Source: an uncultured Methanoregulaceae archaeon (GTDB taxonomy: Archaea > Halobacteriota > Methanomicrobia > Methanomicrobiales > Methanospirillaceae). Taken from it: 64,000 nt of DNA. The notes beneath the pieces were generated by a model. The model did not search any database, was not told the origin of the DNA, and saw only the letters and a program-made list of their open reading frames with translations. The position numbers and the translations under genes were made by a program. The DNA lies in NCBI GenBank assembly GCA_963815065.1, contig CAWFFE010000006.1:41110-105109 (forward strand), given 5' to 3'. Positions 44,017 to 64,000 of this stretch are shown piece by piece (positions within the stretch are counted from its first letter, which is position 1; every line of letters begins with the position of its first letter).

Positions 44017-45640
44017 TTACGGGAAACCGCCGTCGAGCCCGTCAGTGATCTTCGTTTTTCTCTCCTTGTTGAGCTCGTGTACGTCAGTCCTCGAACCTGT
44101 GGATCCTGGTGCTGACCGGAAAAGGGATGCCTATCGTGGAGATGAGCGCCTCGCCCCGGTCGAGGGTCTGGATCTCGATCTCCATCTTTGACAGGTCCTG
44201 TTTTGCACTGCCCATGATGATCTCACGGTCACCCTTGTCACCGAGGCCCATGACCACGAAGGTATTGATCTGGGCAAGCACCTTGGGATCCACGTTCTTC
44301 GGCTGCTGGGTGACGACGCAGAGGCCGACACCGAACTTCCGGCCTTCCATGGCACACTCACGGAAGACCTGGGTGGAGGAGCCACCCGAGGAAAGGACCC
44401 GCTGCGCCTCTTCGATGGTGATCAGGATCTGGTGGGATGATTCCTGGCGCTCGTCAATCCCGAACCCGCGGGCCTCGGAGCGGTGCTTTGCCATGATCAT
44501 CCGGGTGATGACCGAGAGGACGAAGAGCTCGCTCCGTTCGCCCATGTCCGGGATATCGACAAGGACAACATTGTTGTCATGGAGATCGGTGATAATCTCC
44601 TGCATGGAGGACCCCTGGGGACGGAAAAACGCCCTGTTTCCATTGACAAGGTTCTCGATGTGCCGCTTGATGACCCGGACCGGGCCGGCCATGGAGTTCC
44701 GGATCTGGTACATGAGGGTGTTTTCCCGCACGGACGAGGTCCCGGTATCCTTTATGGGAAAGATCTCCGGATCCACGTTTTCGAAGAAGTCAATGATCTC
44801 CTTCCCCCCCGCACGGGAGAGTGCCTCGATGATATCGTACTGGGGCTGGCTCAGGTCATGCAGGATGGAAAGGTCGCTGATCCGGAAGTCGTCATAGTCG
44901 AGGTAGAGCTTGTTCATGCCGTATTTTTTCCGGTCGGCCTCGCCCCGGATGGTGAAGATGGAAAGACCGTCCCTGCCGTTTGTGTAGTGGATCAGTCCTT
45001 TGGTGGGTTCACCGGTGGAGGACTTGCCACCGCTCACGTACTCGCCGTGGGGGTCGACGATAAGGAGCCCGAACTTCTTCTCCTTCATGCACGAGGCGCA
45101 GAAGGTCTTCATGAAATTGGACTTTCCCATGCCGGTGGTTGCAAAGACCCCCATGTGCTGGGGAAGGACCTTTGCGGGGATGCGGACAGCGACGTCTTTG
45201 ATAACGTCCTGGCCGCTCCGCATCAGGCCGACCTCGATCTCCCCCATCTGCCGGGTAAGGAACATAAAGTCATCGGCAGTCGGGTCCTCGACGGTGGAGA
45301 ACTTGGAGGGGATGGTGCGGGCCTTGTGGAATTTCCCGCCGGCATCGACAAAACCGAGCGGGACGGCATCGACCGTGATGAAGACATCCTCGCCAAGGCC
45401 GTAGAACTCCTCGCTGAACGGCCGGGTGTCCCATTTGGGGTCGGCGAAGTTACTGTCGTGCGAGAGATCCGTGATCTTGGCAAAGAAGGTCAGTCCCTTG
45501 GTCCTGTCGACGATCTTCTTGATGTCCCCGATGTAGAGCGTCTCGCTGTGCGGGGCGATGAAGCGATAGGAGAGTACGCTCCTGCCGGTCAGCCGGAATT
45601 TGGTTCGGTCCACGTTATCAATATCGTTCAAAGTCACCAT
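44017..45640 (-). CDS. herA: Bipolar DNA helicase/translocase HerA (extra base near 44085)
   Basis: N-terminal HAS-barrel-like region, HMGVFATTGMGKS, IVDPHGEY, IEEAQR, EGRKFGVGLCVVTQQP. C-terminus YVHELNKERK..DGGFP* lies in the shifted frame. Confidence 0.9.
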
Positions 45641-46647
45641 GTAAATCACCAAAAAGGTCTTCAAAGGCCCTGTGCTGTATTCCCTGTTTCGAGAGCCCTG
45701 ATTTAATGTCCTGCAGTATCTGCATCACCAGCGGTTCGTCGATGACGACCGTGCGGTGGGCGTCGAGGAGCGGGTAGGGATACCCGGGGATCCTCCCGTC
45801 ACCGGCGCACGCGGCGAGGGCCTGCATGGTTGCCGCCGCTGCACGATCGTCGGTTCCCTTGGGCAGCTCCATCTTCAGGGGCCTGCTGACCTGCGGGTGG
45901 AGTGAGGCAATATACAGTTCCCCGTGCCTTCCCGGGCTGTACCCGGCATGATCCGGGATATGGGGGTCGATCTTCGCCCACCAGGGACCGGTGATACCGA
46001 GGTGTCCTGCAAAACCCGCGATCGCCGGGAGCAGGGGGTGCCCGCCGCCCCATGTCGCACGGGTCCGTTTTGCCACGGCCGCGAGGAGGAGGTTGCGTTC
46101 CTGTGCCGTCCGGATGATATCGGACAGCACCGGTTCGTGGTTCTGGCTGGAGACCCTCAGGGCCCCGTCGAGGAGGAGGAGCGCTCCTTCCGGCAGCGTC
46201 TTTGCCGTCTGCAGGGCGACCCAGTACTCCAGCGTGTCGCGGAGGATGGCAGATGCCCGTTCGGGGTCTGCGTTGTCCAGCCCTTTGTGGGGCGGGGTGC
46301 CGAAGCATTCATGGTAGAGATCGTCAAAGTCGGTGTTGCGGTGACCCGGCCCGATGGTGACGAGTGTGAGGGGGGTGATGGATCGGCCGGAGCGGATGTT
46401 TCCGGCAAACGTTGTCCGCAGCCGCCCGGATAGCGGCGATGGCGACACTTCCCCCTTCGGCGATCATCGTGTTGCTCCCGTCGATTGCGCTCACGGTGCC
46501 GGAGGGGCCCGTATGAATCGGGTGAATATCGTCGTTGGTGATTCCGCTCTCACGGGCAAACCTTTCAACCAGATCTTCCGGGATGTGCCCGGTGATACTC
46601 CGGAGGGCCCTGTCCAGTGATTCCTCATAGGATGCAGGTGCGGTCAT
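45618..46647 (-). CDS. nurA: NurA 5'-3' nuclease (frameshift near 46425)
   Basis: AIDGS, LRDTLEY, LLLDGAL, AVAKRT, GYPYPLLDAH. Sits between rad50 and herA. Confidence 0.88.
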
Positions 46648-47003
46648 TCTCCCACTTCCCGTACCCGGCTCACCATGTCGGTGCCCATCTCGACGACGAG
46701 GGTATTGGCAAACTCCCCCTGCATCTCGGCGATGTGGGAGATGAGGATGATCTGCGGGAACCGTGATTCCTGCGTTCGCAGGCTGGTCAGGAGGCTGGTC
46801 CTCCGTTCTTCGTCCTGGCTCCCGAAGATCTCATCGAAGATCAGCAGCGTGCTCTCGCGCACGTTATGGAGTTCGGCGAGATACCGTGACAGGGCGATCC
46901 TCAGGGCAACGGCGATGTCGTCCTGCTCCCCCCCGCTGAAGCGGTCGATGGCATAGTCATCGTCGACGTCCCGCACGAGCAGGTTGAAGTCCTCGTCCCA
47001 AGC
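46644..47003 (-). pseudogene. rad50: C-terminal ~120-aa fragment of archaeal Rad50
   Basis: Signature FSGGEQ..ALRIAL, Walker B/D-loop LIFDEIFGSQD, H-loop LISH, ATGA overlap with nurA. No Walker A or coiled coil upstream; sequence turns AT-rich at ~47003. Confidence 0.85.
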
Positions 47004-47136
47004 TAATATACTGCAATCGGTCATTTTTTCTACGCTGAGTGGTTGCATTGAATCCTGTCATAAAAGGATAAATAATTCACCAGTGACGATCAATTAAAAA
47101 TTGTAGTAGATATCTCTGTGCAAATGTGTTTTTTCT

Positions 47137-48365
47137 ATGAAGATCCTCCATTCCTCCGACTGGCACCTAGGTAGCTCACTTTATGGGCATAAGAGATATG
47201 AAGAGTTTGAGGCTTTTTTAATTTGGTTGGCTCAGTCATTACAAAAGGAACAGATTGATGTGCTTATTATTGCCGGAGATATCTTTGATACAAGCACACC
47301 GAGTAACCGGGCAATGGGACTTTATTATCAATTGCTCAACATGGTTACTTCAATACCAGGTCTTCAGATTATTATAACTGCAGGCAATCACGATTCCCCC
47401 TCTCTGATTAACGCGCCGCAACAGCTCCTGAAACATCTTCATATTCACGTTATAGGATCGATTCCGGAGAATCCTGAAAATGAGATCCTCGTAATCAATG
47501 ATTACCAGGGCCAACCGTCACTTATTGTCTGTGCGGTGCCATACCTCCGAGACCGGGATATCCGACTTTCCGAACCAGGCGAAAGTATTGAGGACAAAAC
47601 ACGGAAACTTGAGAATGGTGTGCAGAACCATTATCAGCAGGTTGCCAGGATTGCCAAAGCAAAGCGGGAAGAACTTGGTGGAAATATTCCGATTATTGCT
47701 ACGGGTCATCTATTTGTTTCAGGAGGAAAAACCGTCGAAGGAGATGGCGTCCGTGAACTCTATGTTGGAAACCTTGCACGGATCCGGGCGGAAAACCTGT
47801 GTGACGGGATTGATTATCTCGCGCTCGGGCATCTCCATGTTCCACAAATAGTCTCCGGTAAAGATACAATGCGATATTGCGGATCGCCAATTGCCCTTGG
47901 ATTTGGGGACGCCGGGCAGCAAAAACAAGTCGTGATCGTTGAGTTTGGATCTGGGGAACCAGTAATTCGTATGTACTGGTGCCAAAGTTTCGGGATATTC
48001 GGACTTTAAAAGGGGATATCAGCACTGTTGAAAATGAAATTAAGGCTCTTCTTAAACTCGACCATCAGGTTTGGATTGAAGTGATCTTTTCCGGGGGGCT
48101 TTCCGCTTCAACTGTACAAACTCAACTTCGCGAGCTTACTGATGGGACAAATGTCGTGCTCATACGGACAAAGCCCCTGGATGCGGGAAATTTTGAATTC
48201 AAGCCTGATGAAGAAAGCGAATCCCTCGAAGACCTTTCCGTGATGGACGTATTCCAACGCTGCTTGGATTGCAAGAATATTCCCACGGAAGATCGGCGAG
48301 AACTGATGTATGCATTTGCGGAGATCCTTCATGGATTAGACGAAGAGGATACACTCGCTGAGTGA
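47137..48365 (+). CDS. sbcD: Bacterial-type exonuclease SbcD (Mre11 family), frameshift near 47975
   Basis: HSSDWHLG, IAGDIFD, AGNHDS, VPYLRDRD, TGHLF, DYLALGHLH, RYCGSP. SbcD C-terminal domain in ORF 47979-48365. Confidence 0.9.
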
Positions 48366-48373
48366 GGATGAAG

Positions 48374-51300
48374 ATGCGTATCCAGTCACTTCGGTTTAAA
48401 AACCTGAATTCTCTTGCTGGTGAGTGGAAGATCGATTTTACCGATCCTGAATATGTATCGTCTGGCATCTTTGCGATAACCGGGCCTACTGGAGCGGGGA
48501 AAGAGTACGATCCTTGATGCGATCTGTCTTGCATTATATGGCCACACACCCCGATTGGGGAAGATCACAAGTAAAAATGCGGGTGAACTCATGTCACGCC
48601 ATACCGGAGAATTTTTTTCTGAAGTTGAATTCGTGTCCGACAAAGGACATTTCCGGTGCATGTGGAGTCAGCGGCGGGCAGACAAAAAGCAGGATGGGAA
48701 ACTACAACTCGCGAAGCATGAGATTGTCGATGCCATAACAAGAAAGCCCGTTCAAACAGGCAAGACGGCAGTGAATCAAAAAATCATCGAAATCATCGGT
48801 CTTGATTACCAGCAGTTCACCAGGTCAATTCTCCTCGCACAGGGGGATTTCGCCACATTTCTTGATGCAAAGTCAGACGAACGCGGGACAATTCTTGAAA
48901 CGATAACTGGTACGGAAATTTATGGCGAGATCTCGATAAAAGTCCACGAGCGATTTGGACGGGAAAAAGCACTGCTCTGGACGAGTTAACAAGAGTCAAG
49001 AATATTGGGATAATGACAGCGGAACAGGCCGTTGCGTTTCGGAGAGAGAAAAAGGAGAATGAAAAAGAGATACTAAAGATCTCCGCACACTCTAAAGGTC
49101 TTGAAGAATCATTTGCATGGCTGGATTTCATAGGAGCGCTTGAATCGGAAGTATTGGGTCTGCAGCGACAACAACTTGCGCTGTCAGAAGAAAGGAAGCC
49201 AAAAAAGACCTGGATGCCCTTCACCTTGCCCGAAAAGCCCGGGACTTTGAAAGGGTCTATTCCGGGCTCTCTACAACGCGATCAACAGGAAAAGGAAATC
49301 TGCAAAAGAATGCACATGAGAATAAATCTTCAAGGGATTTTCTACTGCATACACAAATGCATTTGATGCTTTTTTGTCTGCCCAGGAACGACGGACTGCA
49401 ATTGAAGAGAAACGAAAGGATGATGACTGATCAGGCACGTCCGAGTTCTCGATACCCAAATCCGGAAACCGGGGCGAAACGGAAAGAACGCGAGAAGAAA
49501 AAGACCGGTTTGAAGAAGAGTGTGGGAAATATAGGCAGGCCATTCTGTCAGCAGAATCCCAGTTGAAAGAGATCCGGCAGGAGCCTTTCCACCGCAACAT
49601 TATATCTGAATGCACACCCTCGGGACAATAAACTGATTGAGTCTCTTTCGGGGATTGAATCCGCCGTCCAGCAGATAAATATTATCCATGAGAAAACTGA
49701 AGAGAAGAAAATTGAACTGAATGACACGGAGAAAACGCTTTCCGATGCTGAACAAAGCCTCCTGATAAGAAAAAAAGAGATGGACAATCTTTCAAATAAG
49801 GGGTGGTGTGCGATAACTGAAGCAGAACGGATCAAAAAAGCACTTGTGGATATTACCGGGGGGCAAGACATTTCGGGCACCACGGGGGCTCACGGACAAA
49901 GTGAAAGACTATCACGACCGGCTCCGGTTGTTCTCGATTCCGTCTCCCGTATTGAAGAAGAGACTTCCGAATATCAGAAACATGGCGAAAAAATAACATC
50001 TATTCTTACAGAACGGACAGGAACAGAACAGCAAGCATGGTAATGATCGCAAAAAGAAGAAGGACAAAACGCACAACTCGTAAAACTTGCCGAAGAAAAA
50101 TTATTCCTGCAGGCACGGGTAAAAACTCTCGAAAAAGAACGGGAACACCTTATGTAAGGGACTCCCTGCCCTCTTTGCGGTTCGATCGATTATCAGTGAG
50201 GTACTGGGGGCAATGCCAGTCCTGGATAACGCAGAGCAGGAACTTAATACGCACAAAAAAGCGCGTGAAATATTGCATAAAAATATTCGGCAAAGTGAAG
50301 CAAAACTCGCAGCACTCGATGCGGAGGTCCAGGGCATAGAATCTGTCCGTAAATTCTCCGGGAGAAGATAAAGATGGCAACAACAGAGTTTCAACGGGAA
50401 TGCAATGATCTTGGTCTTGTGACCACCGGGACTGATTTGAAGCCAGCGATCGCTGCTGCGTTTGATGAATACAGGGAAAGGCTTGAAAAAGCCCGGGCAG
50501 AAACCCTGAATCATGCAGAAGAGAAAGAACGGGAGATCCTGTGCGCTGAAGACCTTATTACACGGGAGAAAAGTGAGTTGAACTTGATGCCCAAAGAGAT
50601 TATGACAAGGCCATGTCCTACCGCGATACCAAAATCAGGGATATGAACCGCATAATTAATGAGATTGCTGCGACTGACGCAGAATACCGACGACAAAAAG
50701 GGGCGATTCTCAATGCTTTGCAGGAATACGATATCATTGTATTCAGTGCTCATACCATGGCTGAAGAAATCCTGACCGAGCTGAGGGAGTCGCCGTGATG
50801 GATATGCCACAAACCGGTCACAAATAAACAGGAATTGGAAGATCTCACAACAGCGCTTAAGGGACAGAAGTAGAAAGAAACATCTCACTTATTTCGGGAG
50901 CGGAAAAAAATCTCAAAAGTATATCTGAAATCCTGTCTAAGAGTTTATGAGGATTTTAAAACGTCTTCGGCTGAATGCTGAGAACTTTATGGTGAAAAGG
51001 ACCCGACTGTCGAAGTGATCTGAGCGTGACAGGAAGGTAGAAGATGCAAAAAAAAAATTGTCCGAAGCAAATGAGACAAAAAGCCTTGCTGATAAACAGA
51101 AAAGTTCCTGTGAAGACCAGATCCATACTCTTGCCGAAAAAATCACCCGTTCGTATCTCGGTGCTCCAGGAAAAAGAGCAGGAATTTTTCAGGGTTCTTG
51201 CCCTATTTGTTTTCAGCCCATGAAAATCACTTCATTTCAGCCAGGCTTCCTTCAGATAAACTTTCTGAACTGGAACAGTTTGAAACAGATCTCATGCACG

Positions 51301-52068
51301 AAGAAACCAGGATCTTGACCTGGTTCCGGTGAAAAATCCTCAAAACTTGCTGGAGAACAAAAGGCGCATGCTAACGACCACAAAGCGTGAAGATCTTTTA
51401 ACCGATATTGAGATTCAAAAAAATCGGATGACTGAACTCCAGATCGATATCGGGCGGCTAAAGACAAATCTTGAACAATACGATGCACAGGTTGCGAAAT
51501 ACCAAACCCTCAAATAAAGAGATTATTCAAACAGAAAAAAGAATGTGCAAAGTGGCAGAAACTCCACGATCTTATCGGCTCTGCTGACGGCAAAAAGTTC
51601 AAGATTTTTGCACAGGGGCTGACATTTGAGAACTGTGGTTGTGCAGGCCAACCGACACCTCCAGACTATGAGTGACCGTTATCTCCTTATACGAAATAAG
51701 GATTCCCCGCTCGATCTGGATATTATGGACAATTACCAGGCCCGGGAAATCCGTACGACAAAGAACCTGTCCGGTGGGGAGAGGTTTCTTGTAAGTCTCG
51801 CGCTTGCACTCGGTCTTTCCGGGACTGGCAAGCCGCAATGTCAGAATCGATTCTCTGTTTCTTGATGAAGGATTCGGAAACGCTTGATGAAGATACCCTT
51901 GAGACTGCACTTGAGACGCTCTCATCGCTTCACGGGAAGGAAAAATCATTGAATCCTCTCCCATGTTTCAGCAATAAAAGAGAGGATAGCGGTACAGATC
52001 CGGATTGAAAAGATTGGGGGCGGAAGGAGCCGGTGATATCGGCCCAGGATGTTCGGGCCAAAAAGTAA
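48374..52068 (+). CDS. sbcC: Bacterial-type SbcC ATPase, heavily fragmented by indels
   Basis: FKNLNSL, FAITGPTGAGK, QFTRSILLAQGDF, zinc hook PCPLCGS (~50165), LIGSADGKKF, NLSGGERFLVSLALALGL, LFLDEGFG. Spread over many short ORFs. Confidence 0.85.
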
Positions 52069-52128
52069 ATTGAAAAAACAGGAATCACATATTTAACATT
52101 CAGCGAATGCACATTTACCGTCATCTGC

Positions 52129-55100
52129 ATGAACACTCACGATATTATTTTTGGACTTCCCGGGGATAATCTGGAAACAGTAATCGACATTTTGTTTCCG
52201 CTGCAAAGGAAGATCCCTTCGCAAGTTGGCTTTTCTTCCCACTCAGCGCCTTGTCGTGAATGTAACGAACACTTTGATGGGGAATACTATCCCCTTCATA
52301 TCTTCCCGAATCTGTACACTCGATGGATTTTGTAAAGTTCTGTTCGAAGAAAACCAGACAACTGAGCGATTCATCCCGAAAGGTGAATCGAAGCTGCTGC
52401 TCACGAAAGTCCTGACGGATCTTGCAAAGGAGGTTCCGCTCTTTGTTCCATGCGATCGCCCGTCGTCAGGCACGATCGATGATCTCATGACATTCATGAA
52501 TGTCACGCTGACACGGAAGGTTCCGTTCCCTGAATGCCTCCTGGATCTTGAGAGCGAGAAAAGCCGGAGCTTGACATGATTATCACAGAATACCGCAGAC
52601 AATTGGGGGAATCGGATCTTGTGGATAGCGATACGATCCTTGAACGGACGATCGATCACCTGAATCACTCGGGCACATCCTCGCTCGGTACGGTATTTGT
52701 CTACGGTTTCCACGACCTCCTGCCTCTTGAACAGGATCTCTTCGATGCGGTACGGGACCTCACTGAAAAAGTCCATTTCTATGTTCCTGATGGTATCGAT
52801 CCGAATATTTTCAAAAGCCGGGCTGCTGAAGGAAACCAGTCCGGATCTCAGCCAGTACTAGATCCATCATCTTTACAGTCACAGATAACCGGCCTTTTCT
52901 CGGAATCTAGGATACTCAAGTCCGGAGATTTTTCAGGTACAGTCATTTCCTTCACGCTATACGGAAGTATACAGTATCGCAGCCGAGATCAGCCGGTTGA
53001 ATGGCCGCGGGATTCCTCTTTCCGATATTGCCGTTGTTTTTCCCGCTCTTCGCGATGAACTTGGACTTATAGAGGAGGTCTTTTCTGATTCGGGATACCC
53101 TGGAATGCAGCAGTCGGTCCCCGGCTTTCACCAACCGGTTGTTCAGTTTTTCCTGGAGATCGCCAACCTCGTCGCTAACGGGTATGCACGCGAAAATATT
53201 ATCCGGTTGATCAGGAACCCGTTTTTCCGGAGAGGGCAGGTTCCCGGGGGATCGACATGTCTGGATGCTGCCGAAGTTGACCTCGTTTCCCGGTATGCCG
53301 GGATTGACGGGCCCTATCCGGAGTGGAAGAAACAACTGGCCTGGCTTCATCAGGAATTAGTGGATCCTGAAAAAGGGAAGAACTTCCGGGGAATCTCACT
53401 CCATTCCGTTGAACGTGTTCAGGAAGGAATGGAAATTCTACTCAATAATCTCGATCTCCTTTCCAAAAAGAAACGACTCCGTGATCATATCAAAGATTTT
53501 CAGGGATTTCTAAACTTATGGGACATCCCGTACTTGTTCGCCGCACCGAATGAGCACCTGAAGGAACAGGAGAATCCGGATCAATAAAAAATTCCAATCC
53601 CGTTTTGAAAATCTGGCCCGGATCGCATGGATGCCGATAGATGATCCCATCACTGCACAGGATTTTTCCCGGCTTATCTCTGCGATCGCAGAAGAGCCGG
53701 ATAATGCCAGCCGGCAGGATGAGGACGGTGTTACCGTACTCGGTTTCCGTGAATGCCCTCACATGAAGTTTCCCGTGGTCTTCATTGGCGGGTTGGTTGA
53801 AGGCGTCTTTCCCAGTCTGACAACCCGGCTTCCCTTCACAAACTCTCTTGAGAATGCCCGCATGGGAACCCGTTCGCTCACCGAGATCCTCCGGGAAGAA
53901 CAATATTATTTCATTGCAGCCCTGCTCTCCGCACAGAAGATGGTGTACCTGAGTGCCCCTCTTGCCGATGGGGAAAAAATATTGCTCACCTCAGCATTTT
54001 TCGAGCGGGCCCGGATGAGGATCGGCGAATGCCCATGGCCTGTTTCGACAGAAAATTCTATTACATCCCGGCGGACTACAGCGATTGACGCGGGGAAAGG
54101 GATTCGTGATGAGAAGCTTGCACCGTCCTCAACCTCGATCCCGGATTCTCTGGGTATCAGTGATTTAATCCAACGCATCAACATGGAACGGTATTACCGG
54201 AGGGGCGAATGCGATTCACCATATGACGGAATACTTTTCGGGGATGAAACGATCGGAACCGTTCTTGCCGGGCAATATGGTCCGGATCATGTCTGGTCCC
54301 CGACAAGCCTTGAAACCTATGCAACATGTCCTTTCGCATATTTCCTGAACAGGGTTATTGGTCTTGAAGCATTGCCGGAAGTGGAGCCGAACCTCTCGGC
54401 AAGCGATCGAGGAACCGCTATTCACACTATCCTTACTATATTTTACCGGCAATGGAATGATGCCGGTAATAGAAAGGTCAGTCCCTCATCGCTTACTGAT
54501 GCAACGGAAATGATTCTCCATCTGGCAAATACCGAACTGGAGAAGTATTCCTTCCAGAGCCCGCTCTGGGATGCGACAAAGATCCTGATGCTTGGGGACC
54601 GTCATACAGGTCCCGGGTATTTTGAACGGTTCCTTGAAAATGAAACGCTGGAAGCGGACTCGCCACTTGTTCCTTCACGCTTCGAGTTCTCCTTTGGCAT
54701 GGGGGCCGAGGAGTCGGATGATCCCACATCATCACCGGAAGCGGTTGAACTCACATCACCCGATGGGACGATGCGACTGCGCATACGGGGCCGGATAGAC
54801 CGTGTAGATATCACTCCTGAGGGAAAGTTCCTCATCTATGATTACAAGTCCGGCAGGGAGCATCCCAAGGTAAAGGATATCGAGGCCGGAACTGCCCTGC
54901 AGCTGCCGCTCTACCTGCTTGCCTTCGAGCAGATGACCGGCTCGCACGGGATAGGCGGGGGGTATTATAAAATCCGGCGCGATGTGGAGCGGAATATTGT
55001 CCTTGCTGACACATCAGCCAAAGATCTTCTGGTCTCCCGGCTCCGGCCATCTACGGACTTTCCTGGTATGATCCAGCACTCACGGGAATGTGCCTTCGCA

Positions 55101-55232
55101 TACATCGACGGGATTCGAAACGGGCGGTTCCCGCTTCCCTCAGGAGAGAAATGCCCGAACGAGTATTGTGACTTCAAACGGATCTGCCGTTTCAATCCGT
55201 ACCGGGTTTTGGAGACCGGTGAGGAGACCTGA
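52129..55232 (+). CDS. addB: AddB-like subunit: inactive helicase scaffold plus PD-(D/E)XK nuclease with Fe-S staple (several frameshifts)
   Basis: SDIAVVF, VFIGGLVEGVFP, WSPTSLETYATCPF, RGTAIH, RGRIDRVD, YDYKSG, LQLPLY, CPNEYCDFKRIC. Confidence 0.8.
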
Positions 55233-55233
55233 C

Positions 55234-58200
55234 ATGGTGGCAACACCTCGACAAGGTGAGGCAATCACCAAACACGACAAGAGCATGGTGGTTACTGCTG
55301 GTGCCGGAACCGGTAAGACATACGTCCTGGTCCAGAAATACATTGATCTCCTGAAAACGAAGGGAGTGAGCGTGCCACAGATCCTTGCCCTTACGTTTAC
55401 CGACAAGGCAGCAGCGGAGATGAAGGAGAGGATCCGGGCAGAAATTCTTAAGCAGGATGGCCCACAGTGGGAGAAGGCGGCGGAGGATTTTATGATCGCG
55501 CCGGTCCAGACCTTCCATTCATTCTGCGCACAGGTGCTCCGGGAGTTCCCGATCGAGGCCTGGCTGGAACCGGGTTTTGCTGTCCTGGATGAACAGCAGG
55601 TATCGCGAATCCACAGCAAGGCATACGAGGACCTGATCCATACCCGGCAGGAAGGCCCGGTCAACGAAGCACTGGTCCACGTCCTCTCCATCACAGATCA
55701 ATTTAACTTAAAGACAATGCTCTTCGCACTCTACGGGAAGCGGGAGAGATATGCTCGGTTCTTTACGGCTCTTGGTGATGATGAGAGCCATGTGCTCGAT
55801 GTCTGGAAGACCGAGGTTGAAAAATTCCGGGATGAGGAGATTGCATCACTGAGGAAAGATCCCTCGTTCGCAACCCGGATCCATACGCTGCTCGTTCTTG
55901 CATCAGAGTATGAGGGAGTGAATGACAAGGCGGCCGTATTCCTTCAGGATATCCGGCCTTTAACTCGCTGAACTTGAAAATTCCAAAGATTCCCGAAAAT
56001 TCTGTCAGGCTGCTCTCGAACTTGCCGGGAAGAAACCGGGTAATATCGGGAGTAAGAAGGTCTGGAAGCCTTATGATCTCGATGAGTTCAAACAGTCCCG
56101 GAAAGATCTTGCAGAGATCCTCGACCGGAAACACACTCTGTTCCACATGATTTTTGACATATCCGATCCGGTCATCACCGGCTCTGTGCAGTTCTTAAAG
56201 TCGCTCTCCCTTGTCTTTTCCCGGTATACAGAACTGGTCGGTAACGGGAAGGCGGCTCTCGGCGGTCTCGACTTCTCCGACCTGATCCTCCATGCACGGA
56301 GATTATTCCTTGAACAGGGAGGACTTGTTGCAAAACACTTCATGCCCCGTTTCGGTACATCCTGGTCGATGAGTTCCAGGACACGGACCTGTCGCAGTTC
56401 GATATCATTCTCGCCATCATCGGGACGCCATCCCCGGACACGGACTGCCTCTTCATCGTCGGTGATCCCAAGCAGTCGATCTATCTCTTCCGCGATGCGG
56501 ATGTGACCCGGTTCAAAGAGGCACAGGAGATCATAACCGCTGCCTGCAAGGGACGGGTGGTGGATCTCGATATCAGCTTCCGGAGCACGAAGGAAGTGAT
56601 TGGTCTTTCGAACCTCATCTTCACCCGGTTGCTGGCATCCACCGAGAAACCGTGGGAGTTCGGGTACAAGCCCGTTGAGGTCTCCGAAAACCGTGCCGAT
56701 CATAAAGGTTCGGTTGAACTGCTCCTTCCTCCAAGAGGCAATGATGCAGCTGGCACGAAACGGAACGAGGCCGACATGGTAGCCCGGCGGATCCACAGCA
56801 TCGTCAATGCCCAGCCTCTCTCCGTGTACGAAGAACAGCCGGATCATACATTTATCGAGCATCCGGCACGGTACCGGCGATATCGCGATCCTGCTGGAAC
56901 AGCGAACCAATCTTTCATACTACCTTTCGGCCCTGGGCGAGTACGGGATATCCTTCTATGTCCACGGTGGCACCGGGTTTACCACCGGCAGGAAGTATAC
57001 GATCTTTGCAACATCCTCTCGTTCCTCGAACACCAGCATGACAATGTCAGCCTTGTCGGTATCCTGCGGTCACCGTATTTCGGTCTTCCGGACACGGAAC
57101 TGTTCCGCATTGCGCAGGAACGAGGGATTACTTTCTGGGATAAACTTGGAGTGTATGCGAAGAATATCGGACCCGGGCTGGCGGCATCCCAAGCCCGCGA
57201 TCTTCTCGGCTTGTGGCAGCAATACGCCTGCCATGTCGGGCTGGTTGCATTGATCCGCAGGATTCTCGCGGAGTCCGGGGTCTACACCGTCTATGCAGCA
57301 CTCCCGGCCAGTGAACAGATCCTTGCCAACATCGAGAAACTGGTTGCCATGGCCAGGAACCGCGAGGAAGCCGGGCTGATACCCACTCGCTGATTTCACC
57401 GCCGATCTCCGGATGGCGATGGACGAGGACGAGCGGGAGGGCGAGGCACCGCTCGATGCCCTTGCGGAGAATGCCGTCAACATCATGACCGTGCACGCGG
57501 CAAAGGGACTGGAGTTCCCCGTTGTCTTCGTGCCGGATATGGGGACGTCCTTCCGCGAAAAGTATCCCCCGATTATGATCGGCGACAATCCGCTGATGGT
57601 TGGTGTCAAGGTTCCGAACCCCGCTGCTGATTACGAGATGACCGAGAGTGCCGTTCTTTTGACTTTGCGGGAGCAGCAGCGCCAGAAGGAGCGGGCGGAG
57701 AAGAAGCGCCTGCTGTATGTTGCTTTGACCCGGGCCCGGGATCATCTGTTCATGAGCGGGATTGCGCCGAGGATGCCGGGTTATCTTTCTATCTTGGCGG
57801 GTCCCGGATCGAGTGGGTGTTTAATTCACTTGGTGTGACTGGGGATGCGATTGCGGCCGGGGGACTGGTGTTGCCGAGGATTTATCCGGATTGCGATTGT
57901 TTCGGACTCATTAGCGATTCCCGCTGCAGACCGGGCGCGTCGAACCTGCGCTGATTGTTGTGCCGGCGGAATGTGAGGGGAAGCTGGGACCTGGACGGTA
58001 CCAGAAATATTGTCGGACCTGAACGGGTCGAGGTGAAATCCGTTTCGGATATTGAGAAAGAGAAAAGGGAGAACGAACCGGTGCCGGTGTTATCGTGGCC
58101 CGGAACCGTGGATTGAGGTACCTGTCAGGTATTGAAGGGACGAATAAGGGCACAATCATTCACGAGGTATTGCGGGGACGGGATGCCGCAGTAGTCCTGA

Positions 58201-58568
58201 AGGAGTATGGCGATATTCGGAGGAGTATGTCCGGCAGTGCAAGGAGATCCCCTCTGCGTTTTTATCTTCGGATCTGATGAAACGGGTGAAACGGTCGTAT
58301 TGTGAAGTACCGTTTGTTGTGACGGATGACGGCAAGACTGTGAGGGAAGATTGACCGTTGTGTGAGACTCGATAACGGGACTTGGGTCGTGATTGATTAC
58401 AAAACGCAACCGATTAATTCTGATGAGTTTGCGTTATTGGCAAACGAATACATCACTTCCATGACAGTGTATGTCAATGCGGCGAAAATGCTTCTTAGGA
58501 TAGCGTTCGTAAAAGGAAATATATATTATTCAGATAACAAGGATTATGGGGAAATTCTTAATCATTAG
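55234..58568 (+). CDS. addA: AddA-like UvrD-family helicase-nuclease (several frameshifts)
   Basis: AGAGTGKT, LTFTDKAAAEMKERI, QTFHSF, LVDEFQDT, VGDPKQSIY, MTVHAAKGLEFP, RLLYVALTRA, KGTIIH, VIDYKT. Starts 1 bp after the addB stop. Confidence 0.85.
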
Positions 58569-58602: not shown

Positions 58603-60898
58603 CTATAACCCCGGCTCTAATTCCAAAGCAAATTTTGCATAGTTATTTAATTCTGTATCTATGATTTGCTGCATGGTCTGGACTTGATGTATCATGCATA
58701 TGTCCTGATGAATATACATTAAGTTCTTTTAATTTTGGCACATGAACTTTAGTCCTGAACAATGGGGATGTTGTTTGACTGGTCTCGATCATTTCAATCA
58801 TTTTTCCTAAACTATCAGCACCTTTTAGTGAATCTAAAAAACGATAACGAAGGGTAAAGCTTCAACAAGAGGTCTAATGACCCCAACAACTAAAATTTTA
58901 TCAAGACATTGCCCATTACATACATAATTTGAAATTGTCCGATAATTCTTCTTATATACCGTTTGTATACACTTTTGAGATCACAAATGGTTATAATCGA
59001 ATAATCATTATGTGAACGTTTTATTTCGATCGTCGTGCAATCTTCTTTTGAAAAAAAACTATTCTCTAAAAATGATTGCAAAAATCGCGGATCATGTGAT
59101 AAAACGATTAGCTCGTTTTCCTTTATCAGCGAGTGATTTCAGCACGATCTGCGTAGTAAATTGTCGAGATTGATCAAGACTTGACATCGGATCATCGATA
59201 ATAATTATTTTTTCCGATAGATTTGAATCGAGATTAATTTTCGTTAAAAAAAATGTGAATGCGAGTGTTCTTTTATCGCCCTCACTAATGTATTATAGAA
59301 TGTCTACCTACTTGAAGAATTTAATTTTACAGATTTATTCCGTAATTTTATCTCGTATTTTAACCGTGGGACACCTTTTTCCTTTGATGTGTCAACATTT
59401 ACAATACTAAATCCGGGATTGAATTGTGAAAGATATCCATTGATGCCTTCTTCGACATTCTCTAACAAACCATTAGTATACTCAATCAAGTTTTTTTCTA
59501 CGGTTTCTTTTTCTTTCTCTAATTGTTTCTTTCTTTCAATCAATTCCATATATTTTTGACAAGTTTCGTTATTTGGGGATTCATACCTCTCTTTTCTCAT
59601 TTTCCAATTTGAGAAGATTCCTCTCCGCTGGCTTATTGGGTAGATTTGATGTTTGTAAAGTTTGTTTATATTTTTGGATTTCTTCATTAATCCCGCGAAC
59701 GCTTTGATTGTAATTTTTCAGTTGAGTCGGAATTGTATTGATAATGGGTCAAATGGGGGTGAAATATTGGATTGATTTCGATTGGGGATAATGGATTTGA
59801 AATTTTTATTGTTATAAGTCGTTGGCTAATCTCTCTGAAACTATGTAAGATTTGTTTTACCTCTAAAACGTGTGAACTGTCTAAATCGATTGTCGTTATC
59901 TCTTTCCAATTATTGTCTAAAATCGAACTATTCATATCGATAGTATTTTGTAACTGGTTAGGTACGGAATCTGAAATTCTTTCTTGAATATCTCTTTGAG
60001 ATGCCTGAAGAGTGATTTGATATCTTAGTGTAAGTATCGTCAAAGGGACTGACGATATAATTCATAAAGTGGTTCAGAACCTTCGAAATCTTTTCCACAG
60101 AACGGGCAATTTTCTGATTTAACAAGGTTTAATCCTTTTTTTATCCATTGCTCATCCTTCTCCATCAAATGAGTCGCGATATGAGCAATTACTTTCTGTT
60201 TTGCTTCTTCTGATATTGTGGTGATCGTTGTTGCAAGCAATTCCTTTAGTTTATCAAAATCCGTGAATGAAATCACAATCTCATTTAGGCCAGGTTTTTT
60301 TACAATTGTATCAATATTTTTTAGAGATTCAACTAATGTCTCAGTTCTTTTTTTATTTTAAGATCAATTTCAGGATCTGGTTGAAGTGCGATATATGCAT
60401 CGATTGGTAGAGGATATCCGATTTTTGAAATTATTAGACCGGTTTCCCTGACATCTGTGGTGGTTTTAGAGATAGTTTGCGTTAATTTATCTACATCTTG
60501 TTTTAATCTGCCCCCATTTTCACCAAGAGTAAATTCCAATAAAGATTCCCTTTGCTCTGGTAATATAGTAAAACCGGAGTAAATATTTCTTGCAACAAAT
60601 TCTGAATCGAATATTACAATATTATCGAATACTCTATTCCATGCATCATTAACAAAGGTGAATAGAGTGTTATCAATCAAAATTTGACTTTCTTGAATGT
60701 TGGAACCCCCAATAGTTTTTTTCTTGTGATAATCACTGGAGGGTCATTATTTGATAATGAAGAAAAAATTGAACTTAATGTCGATTTACCTCGACCATTT
60801 TCTCCATATATCGTAGTAATTTTTGAAAACTTTATCGCAGAGGGTATAGCATCATGAAATAATCCGAATCCTCGGATTTTGATAATCTTATTTATCAT
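58603..60898 (-). CDS. AAA_13 / RloC-like Rad50-type ABC ATPase, fragmented
   Basis: Walker A IYGENGRGKST, zinc hook CPFCG (~60100), signature SEGDKRTLA (~59270), IIDDPMSSLD, IVLSHD, C-terminal NVYSSGHMH. Very AT-rich. Confidence 0.78.
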
Positions 60899-60989
60899 AG
60901 TGTTTAGTCATTCACTTTGCAACGATAATTCTTCTTTTTTGATTTTCAAAAATTTTTTTCAAGTAAATGCAGTAAATTTAAATTATATA

Positions 60990-62972
60990 ATAGCATGAGC
61001 ATTAATATCTTTGTCTAAAATCACATATTTGAAATGTCCATTTCTCTTCTCGTTCATGATTTTCTTCCATACTGATGGAGCAATATCATTTGTTGAAATA
61101 ATGAAAAGTGTATTATCTTCAGAGCTTTTAGCATGGCCTATGGCCACCATAAGATGAGTAAAATCAAATTGAGTTTTTGAATATCTTTTTGATTCCCCAT
61201 ATCTCTCGCAACGTATAAACTATCCTGTAAGTATTGCAATAAATTAACTAATAGAAATCTTCGAGACCCGGGCAGGGTTTTAAATATTTTGAATTAAGAA
61301 TTGTATATTCAATCCGATTAAGACGTGAATATAATTTTGATAATTCCCGGCTCCTTATTTTTATCCCCTCAATGAATTTTGGAACAAACTCATTTTCATA
61401 TTTTGAATCATCAATCGATGTAACAAAACTCTCGAATTTTTCTTTAAATTTTAGATAATCCAATGTTTCTGTGAAATCCAATGAATCAATAAACGCCCGT
61501 AAGTCTTCCGTATTTTTGAAAAAACCGTATCTAATACATATCGAAATCTTGCTTCATTAAGATTATGAATCTGACTAAGGATTTTCCTCTTATCCAAATA
61601 TAAAATTACACCTTCATTGTCTGATATTGACAAGAAAGAGGCAATAGTTGAAAAACCGTAGATATAGAGAAGGTATTTTTTTCCATCATGTTGAATCGTC
61701 CAATTATACTCGAATTTATCAAAGGTTACATTTAATTTCCCAAAAGCGTTTCGAATTTGGGTATCCAGATTACTGATAATTTTTTTACGATTAACCTCAC
61801 TTATCACGGTTCTTTTATATCGAGTTGTACTTAGCCCGCAAAAATGATTACATTTTGGACAATCAACTATTGAATTATCTTTGAATTCTTGAATGTCAAT
61901 GGGCTCTCCACATTTCTTACATCTTATGTATTCTTCTTCTTGAAGGCGAACAATCCCTTTGTGTTCATATTCTTTTAAAATCTCAAGATTGGGAACTTGA
62001 ATTTTCAAGCAGCATATCCAATTTCAAGAGGAATTTGCATTGGTATCATCCGTATTGAAGGTCTCAAAATAATCAGAAATGATTCTCTTTTTTTCTGTAT
62101 TGTATTCCTTATCAGAACATTTAATGATTACACTCTACACCCTCAATATCAAAATGCAGTTTAAATTTGTGTTCTTGAATTTGCACCGTCGCATTCAGAA
62201 GTTCTGAGTGGTTTGTGATCAAATGTAATGCATGTGATGGTGAAACTAGTTCCATAATATTCTGGTTAATTGGTTCTCGAACTCTAGATCGTTATCTCAA
62301 TGGTTGGAAAATTCGCAAGGGGTGGTATTAACCCCACGGTTATTGCAAACACTTTTACTTGGTGATTACCTTACCTCTTTTATTGCAGAGATGAAGCGAT
62401 CTAAAACCCTCATCGGGTTTTCTTGATGATGTCTTCTTTGAATACTAGTGGTTCGATTGAAAAGTTTTCCGGCAACATGTTGTACAATTTCAAGTGTTTT
62501 TATAGGTTCAAGCCCAAGAAAGGGCCGATAGTTTTGATCGTTGGTCCGTAAAAAACCAATATTTTTTGATCAGCTCGTTTTTATTGCTTCATTGCGAGCA
62601 GTTTTTTTAATGACCGTTGTTGAGTGCTTTTCTCTTCGAAAAATGATTTTGATTTTATCATTTTTCGAAAGAATACCCACATTACATGGATTTTTCTTTA
62701 TCCTTTTTTCCCCTTCTGATATAAATTAAAAGATCCTCTGGACGTTTTCCCTCGTAATCGGAGTGGGTTGCCCTTGACTAAAGCCGGAAATTGCATTAAA
62801 TGTTTTTACAGATGATTTTTTCAGTATATTATCGCAATATAAATCGAAAATAGCATCCTTCTCGACTCCGATTGAAAATGGGTAAGATTAATACTCGTGG
62901 ATTGTCTTTCGGCCAAAATATTATATCCGGAATGATCCTCGCCTAGGGTTTCCCCTTTGCTTTGTTGACAAT
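60990..62972 (-). CDS. AT-rich hypothetical protein(s) with Zn finger, fragmented; boundaries approximate
   Basis: Chain of minus-strand ORF pieces (61451-62008 with CKKC...CPKC, and 61248-61481) in protein-like AT-rich sequence. Confidence 0.5.
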
Positions 62973-63358
62973 TAATCAGTATTTCCAATGCTATCAGAAA
63001 ATTTTTTTAGGGCATATATTTGACAAAAAAACAGTTTATTCCGGTGATATTGTGTTCGAAGAAATGAAAAAAGTCCATCACCTTCTCCTCCAAAGTCTCG
63101 TAATTAATAATCTATACCAAGTTTGTTCGGATGTTTTCAAAATTTTGTAAATTCTTCTTGCATGGTTCTGATCACTGTAGGCCAAGTTCGCAAAATTCCT
63201 TTAATTGGACATTAATATCTAACCAGAATTGTTTTTCTGTTTCTGGTATGCTTATCATAATATGATCCAATATTTTTTAGGATATTAAAATCTGCGATCC
63301 AATTGTAATCATTTTGTTTAATCACTATTTCCGAATGAACCCCTAACTTTAGATGAAT

Positions 63359-64000
63359 TCAATTCGAAAGTGACATCTCCGTATCAATATACCTCTTCGC
63401 ATACTCCGCAATCTGTAAATTTTCCGGTACAAACTGATCAACTTCTCACTTGTCCGGCCCTTGAACTTCTCCGCAATCTCCTCCGGAGACGGGCAGGATG
63501 CAAGATATCGCTTTGTATTTCTCCAAAATATGGGATGGAGAGACGCCCTTAAATTTCAAAGCGATCTCCTCATCTTCCACATGAAGTCTGGCGAATTCTT
63601 TTCCTAATATGAAAAGTGTCCGGTGCTTTGCCGATCCGGTCCAGGTAAACCAGTACGTGTGAGCCCCATCGATAACAAACGGATTCTCCGCGAGTCCGGC
63701 TTCCTGTGCTGTGCATTGCGCTTCCTTGAGCATTTCCTGTGCTTTTAGATTGAGATACGCAGGAACGTAATCGGAGGTAACAATCTCGCGCATCTTCTCC
63801 CGTATTTGGGGATGGATCTCTGCCCCGCCACCGCCAAAATATCTCGGCACTTTTCCGCCTGTCGAAGGTTCGACAAAAATCTCACATCGCTTGAAATCGA
63901 TCGAAAGGATCTCCCACCGGCGTCCCGCGAGAATCAGGAACTCGCGGGTTTCCAGATCGGGAGCTGACCGGACGCTGCCGATCTTTCCACCCTTATGGAC
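63359..64000 (-). CDS. C-terminal part of an Lhr-like DEAD/DEAH helicase (5' part outside window)
   Basis: Frame open from the window edge: FLILAGRRWEILSID..IFVEP..GGKVP.YFGGGG.EIH..IREKM..YL, FTWTGS, a pattern typical of Lhr-like helicase C-termini. Frameshift near 63490. Confidence 0.65.

Follow-up and report, generated by a model that had tools for sequence, protein, structure and literature searches.

A bacterial-type sbcD-sbcC-addB-addA cluster at the mre11-rad50 locus of a Methanoregula genome

Archaeal and bacterial-type end-resection genes at one locus

Mre11-Rad50 and HerA-NurA are regarded as the standard DNA-end resection machine of archaea, and RecBCD and AddAB are assigned to bacteria in reviews (PMC13748450). 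The subject of this work is a stretch of 64,000 nucleotides (the window; G000:C6:41110-105109) from a Methanoregula metagenome-assembled genome (MAG; G000, 2.44 Mb in 6 contigs, 88% complete), in which herA, nurA and the end of rad50 are placed next to a bacterial-type sbcD-sbcC-addB-addA cluster. Positions given without a contig are those of the window. An earlier reading of the letters alone (the sequence-only reading) had named these genes, and the identities of herA, nurA, Rad50 and sbcD-sbcC-addB-addA were confirmed by Pfam matches.

On its left side, the locus matches the archaeal mre11-rad50-herA-nurA operon of two related genomes, G020 and G005, in both gene order and sequence. In contrast to that operon, it retains herA, nurA and the last 115 codons of rad50, plus the first 83 codons of mre11 at a distance of 25 kb. 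The other side contains the same four protein types as bacterial SbcCD and AddAB, gathered in one tight cluster: SbcD with Metallophos and SbcD_C, SbcC with P-loop, zinc hook and Walker B motif, AddA combining a UvrD motor with a PD-(D/E)XK nuclease, and AddB with a PD-(D/E)XK nuclease and a Cys cluster. It differs from the Bacillus subtilis neighbourhood (addB-addA-sbcD-sbcC) in its own order sbcD-sbcC-addB-addA, in an AddB that has no Walker A and a Cys spacing of Cx4Cx5C, and in its host, an archaeon with RadA as the recombinase. In situ gene displacement by a xenologue or an analogue is a general concept for operons and loci. As in such displacements, an analogous module of foreign ancestry here holds the position of the native genes; unlike them, the module lies within a 25-kb island with defence genes, the native partners herA and nurA survive, and the genus shows a graded series of ever shorter remnants.

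We favour, with better than even confidence, the reading that G000 carries a real chromosomal allele, in which a block of ~25 kb has replaced mre11-rad50 in place via recent recombination, and that the frameshifts in the assembled block are mainly consensus errors. An in-place replacement leaving a hybrid toolkit had been envisaged in the sequence-only reading. This holds insofar as ~3 kb of mre11-rad50 has been replaced relative to G005 and herA-nurA is constrained, but the block of ~25 kb, with its defence-type genes, extends well beyond the four cluster genes, and addB is an old resident of the order.

The junction and the remnants of the archaeal operon

The herA gene (44084..45664, minus strand) is an intact open reading frame (ORF) of 526 aa with a Pfam DUF87/HerA match at 1.4e-24 and 97% amino acid identity to its G005 counterpart. 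The adjacent nurA gene (~45618..46647, minus strand) is of full length and matches Pfam NurA; its frame is split by a 1-bp insertion at ~46420, and the inserted base is absent from both G005 and G020 in the alignment. A single break over 3 kb departs no more than a few-fold from the frameshift rate of the whole genome. The view that herA and nurA are essentially complete is thus borne out for herA, but not for the assembled frame of nurA. Lineage-specific changes on the G000 branch, counted as non-synonymous (N) and synonymous (S), were N 5 and S 24 in herA and N 3 and S 18 in nurA, and N/S for the two genes is ~0.2 in G000, equal to that in G005, a pattern that indicates purifying selection on both. 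DUF87 and NurA are hence encoded together and constrained, apart from the 1-bp insertion in nurA, and because this constrained pair stands beside SbcCD-AddAB, the contig encodes a hybrid set.

The rad50 gene survives as a 3' stub (46644..46998, minus strand; ORF 46644-47048, 134 aa) with Pfam matches to SMC_N and SbcC_Walker_B. It corresponds to Rad50 aa 697-811, which comprise Walker B, the D-loop and the C-terminal ATPase lobe, and is 87% identical in amino acids to the same part of the G020 protein. Nucleotide homology to rad50 of G005, G020, G011 and G028 stops at 46997-46998, in agreement with the earlier description of a C-terminal remnant; from a full archaeal Rad50, with both ATPase lobes, coiled coil and zinc hook, aa 697-811 remain. 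G000-specific changes in the stub (N 1, S 10) point to a sequence that is not relaxed and to a recent truncation. A PF13558 search of G000 returned this stub and a sub-threshold match at C2:989234, and no second Rad50.

The sequence-only reading had also stated that the window contains no mre11, which is correct for the 64 kb, but a 5' stub of 83 codons is located 25 kb to the right on the same contig. A search of the whole assembly for mre11 and the 5' part of rad50 recovered two such stubs, both outside the window, and no further Rad50. Stub 1 (C6:113075-113323, window-equivalent ~71966) encodes aa 1-83, with 88% identity to G020 Mre11 and with motifs I and II retained; its differences from G005 amount to N 4 and S 14. 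Stub 2 (C6:117277-117486) encodes aa 1-70 and is older, with N 13, S 17 and a mutated motif I. As both the rad50 stub and mre11 stub 1 are unrelaxed, the two genes would have been functional for nearly the whole time since the split from G005, and their disruption would be recent.

The extent of the replacement was defined by comparison with intact operons. The complete genome G020 contains an intact herA-nurA-rad50-mre11 operon (570, 343, 812 and 380 aa). G005, which is among the closest relatives of G000 (HerA 97%, an 838-aa marker 94% and core DNA 79-84% identical), carries an mre11-rad50-nurA-herA operon in which rad50 and mre11 have frame breaks. In G000, a block of ~24.97 kb (window position 47000 to G000:C6:113074) stands for 2,996 bp of G005-equivalent sequence, namely all of mre11 after codon 83 and rad50 up to codon ~696. 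Synteny with G005 resumes at mre11 stub 1 (C6:113090) and continues for 2.2 kb at 94% identity. The GC content drops from 0.63 to 0.44 at the rad50/sbcD junction, and then to 0.32 past addA.

Between the rad50 stub and sbcD lies an AT-rich region (46999..47136) with a promoter-like element at ~47062-47082, which is conserved in every junction variant and may be the sbcD promoter. In G019, a Methanoregula sp. genome of 95% completeness, a rad50 stub (aa 758-811) is followed by the same 139-bp spacer and then by sbcD, and a herA stub (aa 519-569) is found further left of the rad50 stub. The metagenome contig L141 shows the same arrangement with seven extra rad50-like bases at the junction, and the retention of these bases indicates that the junction is homologous in G000, G019 and L141. 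A simple mis-join, which had been held to be a serious alternative, is unlikely in view of the same rad50/sbcD junction in the independent assemblies G019 and L141. Both of these lack 183 bp that G000 keeps between two TC(C/T)TCGTCC repeats, a loss that would fit a later microhomology deletion.

In nine further metagenome contigs, rad50 or herA stubs abut sbcD. A herA stub upstream of sbcD covers aa 459-570 in five contigs (L081, L124, L138, L143 and L146), aa 465-570 in L149 and aa ~466-569 in G011, L121 and L153, and the herA-stub contigs differ in their end points on both sides. The simplest reading of these variants is a set of nested deletions that began upstream of sbcD and reached into the archaeal operon, with G000 representing the least deleted form. 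A discrete mobile-element terminus at ~47007 was considered and set aside, as L149 keeps ~125 bp more of the sbcD upstream region and nested deletions explain the pattern.

Remnants at the outer ends of the operon are not restricted to this locus. In many Methanoregula genomes, stubs of the mre11 5' end (40-105 codons), at times two in a row, either precede mre11 or stand by themselves (loci in G009:C7, G046:C5, G049:C5, G067:C12, G077:C1, G095:C11 and G008:C5), which suggests repeated insertion or replacement events at the mre11 5' end. Stubs of the herA 3' end (last 50-80 codons) mirror them at the operon's other end; they are repeated downstream of full herA in L022 (G014:C56; 4981-5118 and 5971-6117), with further loci at G006:C120:6043-6273 and in G018:C189. 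Another operon breakpoint is found in G009, where ~3.7 kb is inserted between nurA and rad50 (L076, G009:C7, 4773-8471).

The distribution of the genes was surveyed in 80 Methanoregula genomes besides G000 (81 with G000); as related genomes are not independent, genus counts are given without a statistical test. The eight closest relatives by the 838-aa marker (88-94% identity; G076, G005, G046, G024, G095, G008, G094 and G084) have neither AddB nor SbcD, and the block shares 78% nucleotide identity with G019, compared with 70-73% for core DNA. An old junction, fresh native stubs and the lack of the block in sister species would together fit homologous recombination. In the proposed route, the donor allele would already have had rad50 and mre11 stubs on its flanks, and recent recombination through these stubs would have knocked out mre11-rad50 of the recipient and left herA-nurA beside SbcCD-AddAB. 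SbcCD may then open or clean blocked DNA ends, and AddAB, with its UvrD-type motor and two PD-(D/E)XK nucleases, may resect the ends to 3' tails for RadA; in this way SbcCD and AddAB would assume the role of Mre11-Rad50 and, in other lineages, that of HerA-NurA too. As a separate observation, two divergent groups of HerA alleles can be told apart, with 82-97% and 64-70% identity to G000, and this grouping does not track marker distances; G024 and G095, for example, are 91-92% identical in the marker and 68-69% in HerA. This suggests that the whole operon has been exchanged between species.

The same junction data bear on a more elaborate artefact, in which the contig is an assembly chimera of two Methanoregula populations, one with an intact operon and the other with a stub-flanked block, joined via the rad50 and mre11 segments; HerA-NurA and SbcCD-AddAB would then not be found together in one cell. 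In its favour, both stubs have a native, unrelaxed appearance as far as the breakpoints, the error density and the GC content shift exactly at the junction, G000 is the sole block carrier in its clade, and two fragmented MAGs, G011 and G018, hold both alleles. However, the shared segments of ~345 and 250 bp are short for a join in a 6-contig assembly of long-read type, the same junction recurs in independent assemblies, and a longer shared left arm would place herA-nurA and the rad50 3' end in the block strain, which amounts to the hybrid state anyway. We therefore regard a chimera as rather improbable.

Frame breaks in the bacterial-type cluster

Frame breaks in sbcD, sbcC, addB and addA were counted by frameshift-aware alignment to the intact G019 proteins (409, 1225, 1036 and 1107 aa, respectively), and ~54 small frameshifts in total were found in the G000 assembly. 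The cluster had been described as tightly coupled on the plus strand; its order and its intergenic gaps, which are as short as in the intact G019 cluster, agree with this, but the ~54 frame breaks do not. The best preserved gene is sbcD (47137..48365, plus strand, 409 codons), which has one frameshift (a 1-bp deletion at ~47971, the interruption of an otherwise continuous frame), no stops and, after correction, 82% amino acid identity to G019 SbcD. Its window pieces match Pfam Metallophos (PF00149) and SbcD_C (PF12320) at 58.3 and 42.9 bits, both above cut-off. The G019 orthologue scores 189.4 bits against TIGR00619 (cut-off 77.65).

The sbcC gene (48374..52063, plus strand, ~1225 codons) is the most broken, with at least 15 stop-free pieces, 30 frameshifts, five stops and 59% amino acid identity to G019 SbcC after correction. 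The stops stand beside or in poorly alignable parts, four of them within the coiled coil and the fifth at the C-terminal end. AAA_23 matches the N-terminal piece and a CPLC zinc hook is found at ~50167; Walker B of the window gene was not detected by PF13558 in a six-frame search. G019 SbcC exceeds the Pfam cut-offs for AAA_23 (77 bits) and SbcC_Walker_B (43 bits), but its TIGR00618 score of 341.8 stays below the cut-off of 478.5.

In addB (~52127..55232, plus strand, ~1036 codons), 10 frameshifts and no stops were counted, and the corrected protein is 74% identical to that of G019. About eight of the frameshifts are in the N-terminal half; the C-terminal half is a 533-aa open frame with a PDDEXK_1 match (7e-44, 151 bits). 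AddB keeps the nuclease motif D...DYK and four Cys (C...Cx4Cx5C), its gene adjoins addA, and it scores no more than 85.9 against TIGR02773 (cut-off 903.7) and is without Walker A. AddB proteins (TIGR02773/TIGR02786) are expected to join a helicase-like N region to a PD-(D/E)XK nuclease with a four-Cys Fe-S 'staple'. The last gene, addA (55234..58568, plus strand, ~1107 codons), contains UvrD-helicase and UvrD_C pieces, with 13 frameshifts, no stops and 81% amino acid identity to G019 AddA after correction. The G019 protein has UvrD-helicase, UvrD_C and PDDEXK_1 domains, a GTGKT sequence and the motif D...DYK, and it scores 327.7 and 323.3 against TIGR02784 and TIGR02785 (cut-offs 860.75 and 707.65). 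The term 'divergent bacterial-type' is a fair one for the cluster: SbcD exceeds its TIGR00619 cut-off, and SbcC, AddA and AddB have the right architecture but fall far below the NCBIfam equivalog cut-offs.

The frame breaks are most likely, for the main part, errors of a long-read consensus where coverage was poor or the population polymorphic, and not gene decay, to judge from the way in which the sequences have changed. Across the four genes, the G000 lineage shows N 142 and S 278, compared with N 178 and S 305 for that of G019, which argues that there is no relaxation and that the G000 branch is not longer than that of G019. The cluster is collinear with G019 and G011 over its full length and is broken by no indel larger than 4 bp.

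The contrary explanation is that the island genes are real pseudogenes, with the sbcDC-addBA module and its neighbours having decayed by small indels after the loss of mre11-rad50, so that only HerA-NurA would be left for end processing. In several respects, decay should have left other traces than those seen. All indels are 1-4 bp long, insertions are about as common as deletions and large deletions are absent; no nonsense substitutions occur in ~2,900 well-aligned codons, and there is no non-synonymous excess. In addition, the catalytic motifs are intact, from Walker A and the zinc hook to the nuclease motifs and the Cys cluster of AddB. Substitutions generally outnumber indels several-fold, and 54 neutral indels should bring hundreds of unconstrained substitutions with them. 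On the other side, five genomes of at least 90% completeness (G008, G051, G082, G084 and G098) have neither a full Mre11 nor AddB, and loss of Mre11 without AddB is thus tolerated in the genus, though G082 and G084 keep herA. The density and the position of the breaks, described below, also speak for pseudogenes. On balance, we consider decay unlikely, while still giving it some weight.

Frame changes are not confined to the cluster, which also favours errors over decay: unrelated genes of the block (the RloC-like and helicase genes, described below) are broken as well. Of 40 conserved G020 proteins with a length of 350 aa or more, 10 have frame changes in G000, corresponding to ~0.2 frameshifts per kb, and frame changes relative to G020 orthologues are spread genome-wide (e.g., C2:546327-548660, C2:387676-388902 and C5:163326-164249). 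The G000 assembly has a general indel-error problem, and the indel errors probably lower its completeness estimate. When stop-free frames of 200 aa or longer were mapped, the region did not stand out from the genome background. An alternative genetic code was considered and set aside, as the breaks are frameshifts and not recoded stops. A single assembly with such a high indel error rate cannot by itself prove that the SbcCD-AddAB module is functional.

Several observations weigh against the reading of a recently recombined allele with consensus errors. The frameshift density in the four genes, ~4.7 per kb, is ~25 times the genome baseline; it is also uneven (0.8 per kb in sbcD versus at least 4 per kb in sbcC), which makes low coverage an incomplete explanation, and most breaks lie outside long homopolymers. 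The protein database contains no near-identical intact SbcD, the closest proteins being 85-88% identical, and the junction and the indels of G000 are seen at the assembly level. As for the route, no donor was found in which a long rad50 stub is paired with an mre11 stub on the right, an mre11 stub is absent from the whole G019 genome, and neither an integrase nor an att repeat was found for the block. Finally, although tblastn and PF13558 found no second mre11-rad50 copy in G000, one may lie in the missing part of this genome, which is 88% complete.

The surrounding block and the distribution of the module

Beyond addA, the part of the block inside the window lies on the minus strand. A gene for an RloC-like AAA_13 ATPase (58893..60907) is located in the 32% GC segment in at least six frame pieces, with Walker A and Walker B in different frames and ~3 frame breaks per kb; it has weak tblastn similarity to an AAA_13 protein of G019, in which an intact AAA_13 gene encoding 767 aa directly follows addA. 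It is followed by AT-rich coding-like pieces (60986..63400) without any Pfam or PHROG match, and by the C-terminal half of a DEAD-box helicase (63446..64000). The helicase gene is the first of a trio that runs past the window to C6:110339; the other two encode a BrxC/D-like ATPase and a protein of the TerB-N/TerB/TerB-C type (Pfam Helicase_C, DEAD, BrxC_BrxD and TerB_N/TerB/TerB_C for the trio). In the trio (G000:C6:104555-110339; L041 1555-7339), the helicase is split into two ORFs, and the frame break density of the helicase cluster is 1.6 per kb. The trio adjoins addA in G003 too (L034 1380-5883), at 78% nucleotide identity, and G019 has a TerB_N protein near addA.

A PIN gene is also present in the block, and the content of the block varies between species. 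To the right of the block, an FMN-reductase-like gene, present as two overlapping ORFs (C6:116561-117365), lies beside mre11 stub 2 and is followed by a type I HsdM methylase gene and then by a SocA/Panacea antitoxin-like gene. No tRNA gene was found as a mobility signature of the block, and Pfam and PHROG scans of its ORFs revealed no integrase or transposase. The block resembles strain-variable defence islands in its RloC-like AAA_13 ATPase, its helicase/BrxC/D-like/TerB trio, its PIN gene and its species-variable content. It differs from them in that its core is a DNA-repair operon and in that it is bounded by stubs of the replaced repair genes, rather than by a tRNA gene or an integrase.

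This type of AddB occurs in 16 of the 24 Methanomicrobiales genomes sampled outside the genus, covering all six families, and in 1 of 126 genomes in the rest of the phylum sample. Given this wide occurrence, AddB is an old resident of the order rather than a fresh import from bacteria, and the event in G000 is best seen as an exchange within the genus. SbcD is rarer, being present in 10 of the 80 Methanoregula genomes, in two types. Its nearest named homologues outside Methanoregula-type records are bacterial (Desulfuromonadales, Hydrogenimonas and Pseudomonadota; ~60% identity), which supports a bacterial source for SbcD.

These homologues could also be taken to favour the strict version of the replacement, in which the archaeal genes of this very lineage gave way to a cluster newly acquired from bacteria, the more so since the gene set resembles the sbcDC and addAB neighbourhood of Bacillus subtilis. 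We consider this version hardly credible: the addB type occurs in all six sampled families of the order and in 20 of the 80 Methanoregula genomes, addB divergence roughly tracks core divergence, the junction predates G000, and the identity values suggest that the G000 copies nest inside Methanoregula/Methanomicrobiales.

Across the 80 Methanoregula genomes, AddAB and Mre11/HerA are almost mutually exclusive. A full Mre11 is found in two of the 20 AddB-positive genomes (G018, and G062 with a divergent one at 49%) and a full HerA also in two (the fragmented MAGs G011 and G018), compared with ~41 and ~48, respectively, of the 60 AddB-negative genomes. The AddB-positive G011 has a partial Mre11 at a contig edge. 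In total, 17 of the 20 AddB-positive genomes are without Mre11 or HerA, several of them 94-99% complete; herA stubs alone are left in four and nothing in 13. Eleven AddB-positive genomes have no SbcD and appear to possess AddAB alone. Of all 81 genomes, G000 is the only contiguous one that combines a full herA with AddB. In other families of the order both systems coexist, as in G033, where an intact operon and addBA are 6 kb apart and divergent, and the exclusivity in Methanoregula may therefore reflect a deletion-prone linkage rather than an incompatibility. A second helicase-nuclease could also contribute to end processing in G000: an open frame of ~1035 aa (G000:C2:7125-9971) encodes UvrD-like helicase and PD-(D/E)XK or Cas4-like nuclease regions, its product is 27% identical to AddB, and similar genes are present in G049, G009, G058 and G059.

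A broader hypothesis, which we put forward tentatively and at somewhat less than even odds, is that Mre11-Rad50-NurA-HerA and SbcCD-AddAB are alternative alleles of one locus in Methanoregula, with the flanking stubs of rad50 or herA and of mre11 serving as homology arms of a natural gene-replacement cassette, so that its transfer into a naive relative would knock out the archaeal genes. At least three or four independent deletions would have removed archaeal genes beside the island, and G000 would represent the first step, with Mre11-Rad50 lost and HerA-NurA intact and constrained. In the literature searched, we came across no account of methanogens with AddAB, of Methanoregula having lost Mre11, or of the graded-remnant and near-exclusive pattern in this genus.

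The graded operon remnants and the near-exclusive distribution in the genus are a more interesting result than the single locus. The case bears on the capacity of AddAB to supply RadA and on a possible joint action of HerA-NurA and SbcCD. It would provide a concrete and testable example of the non-orthologous displacement of a core repair system, at the archaeal operon's own locus. If the hypothesis of alternative alleles is true, nature itself would show that AddAB, alone or together with SbcCD, can replace the near-universal archaeal resection system.

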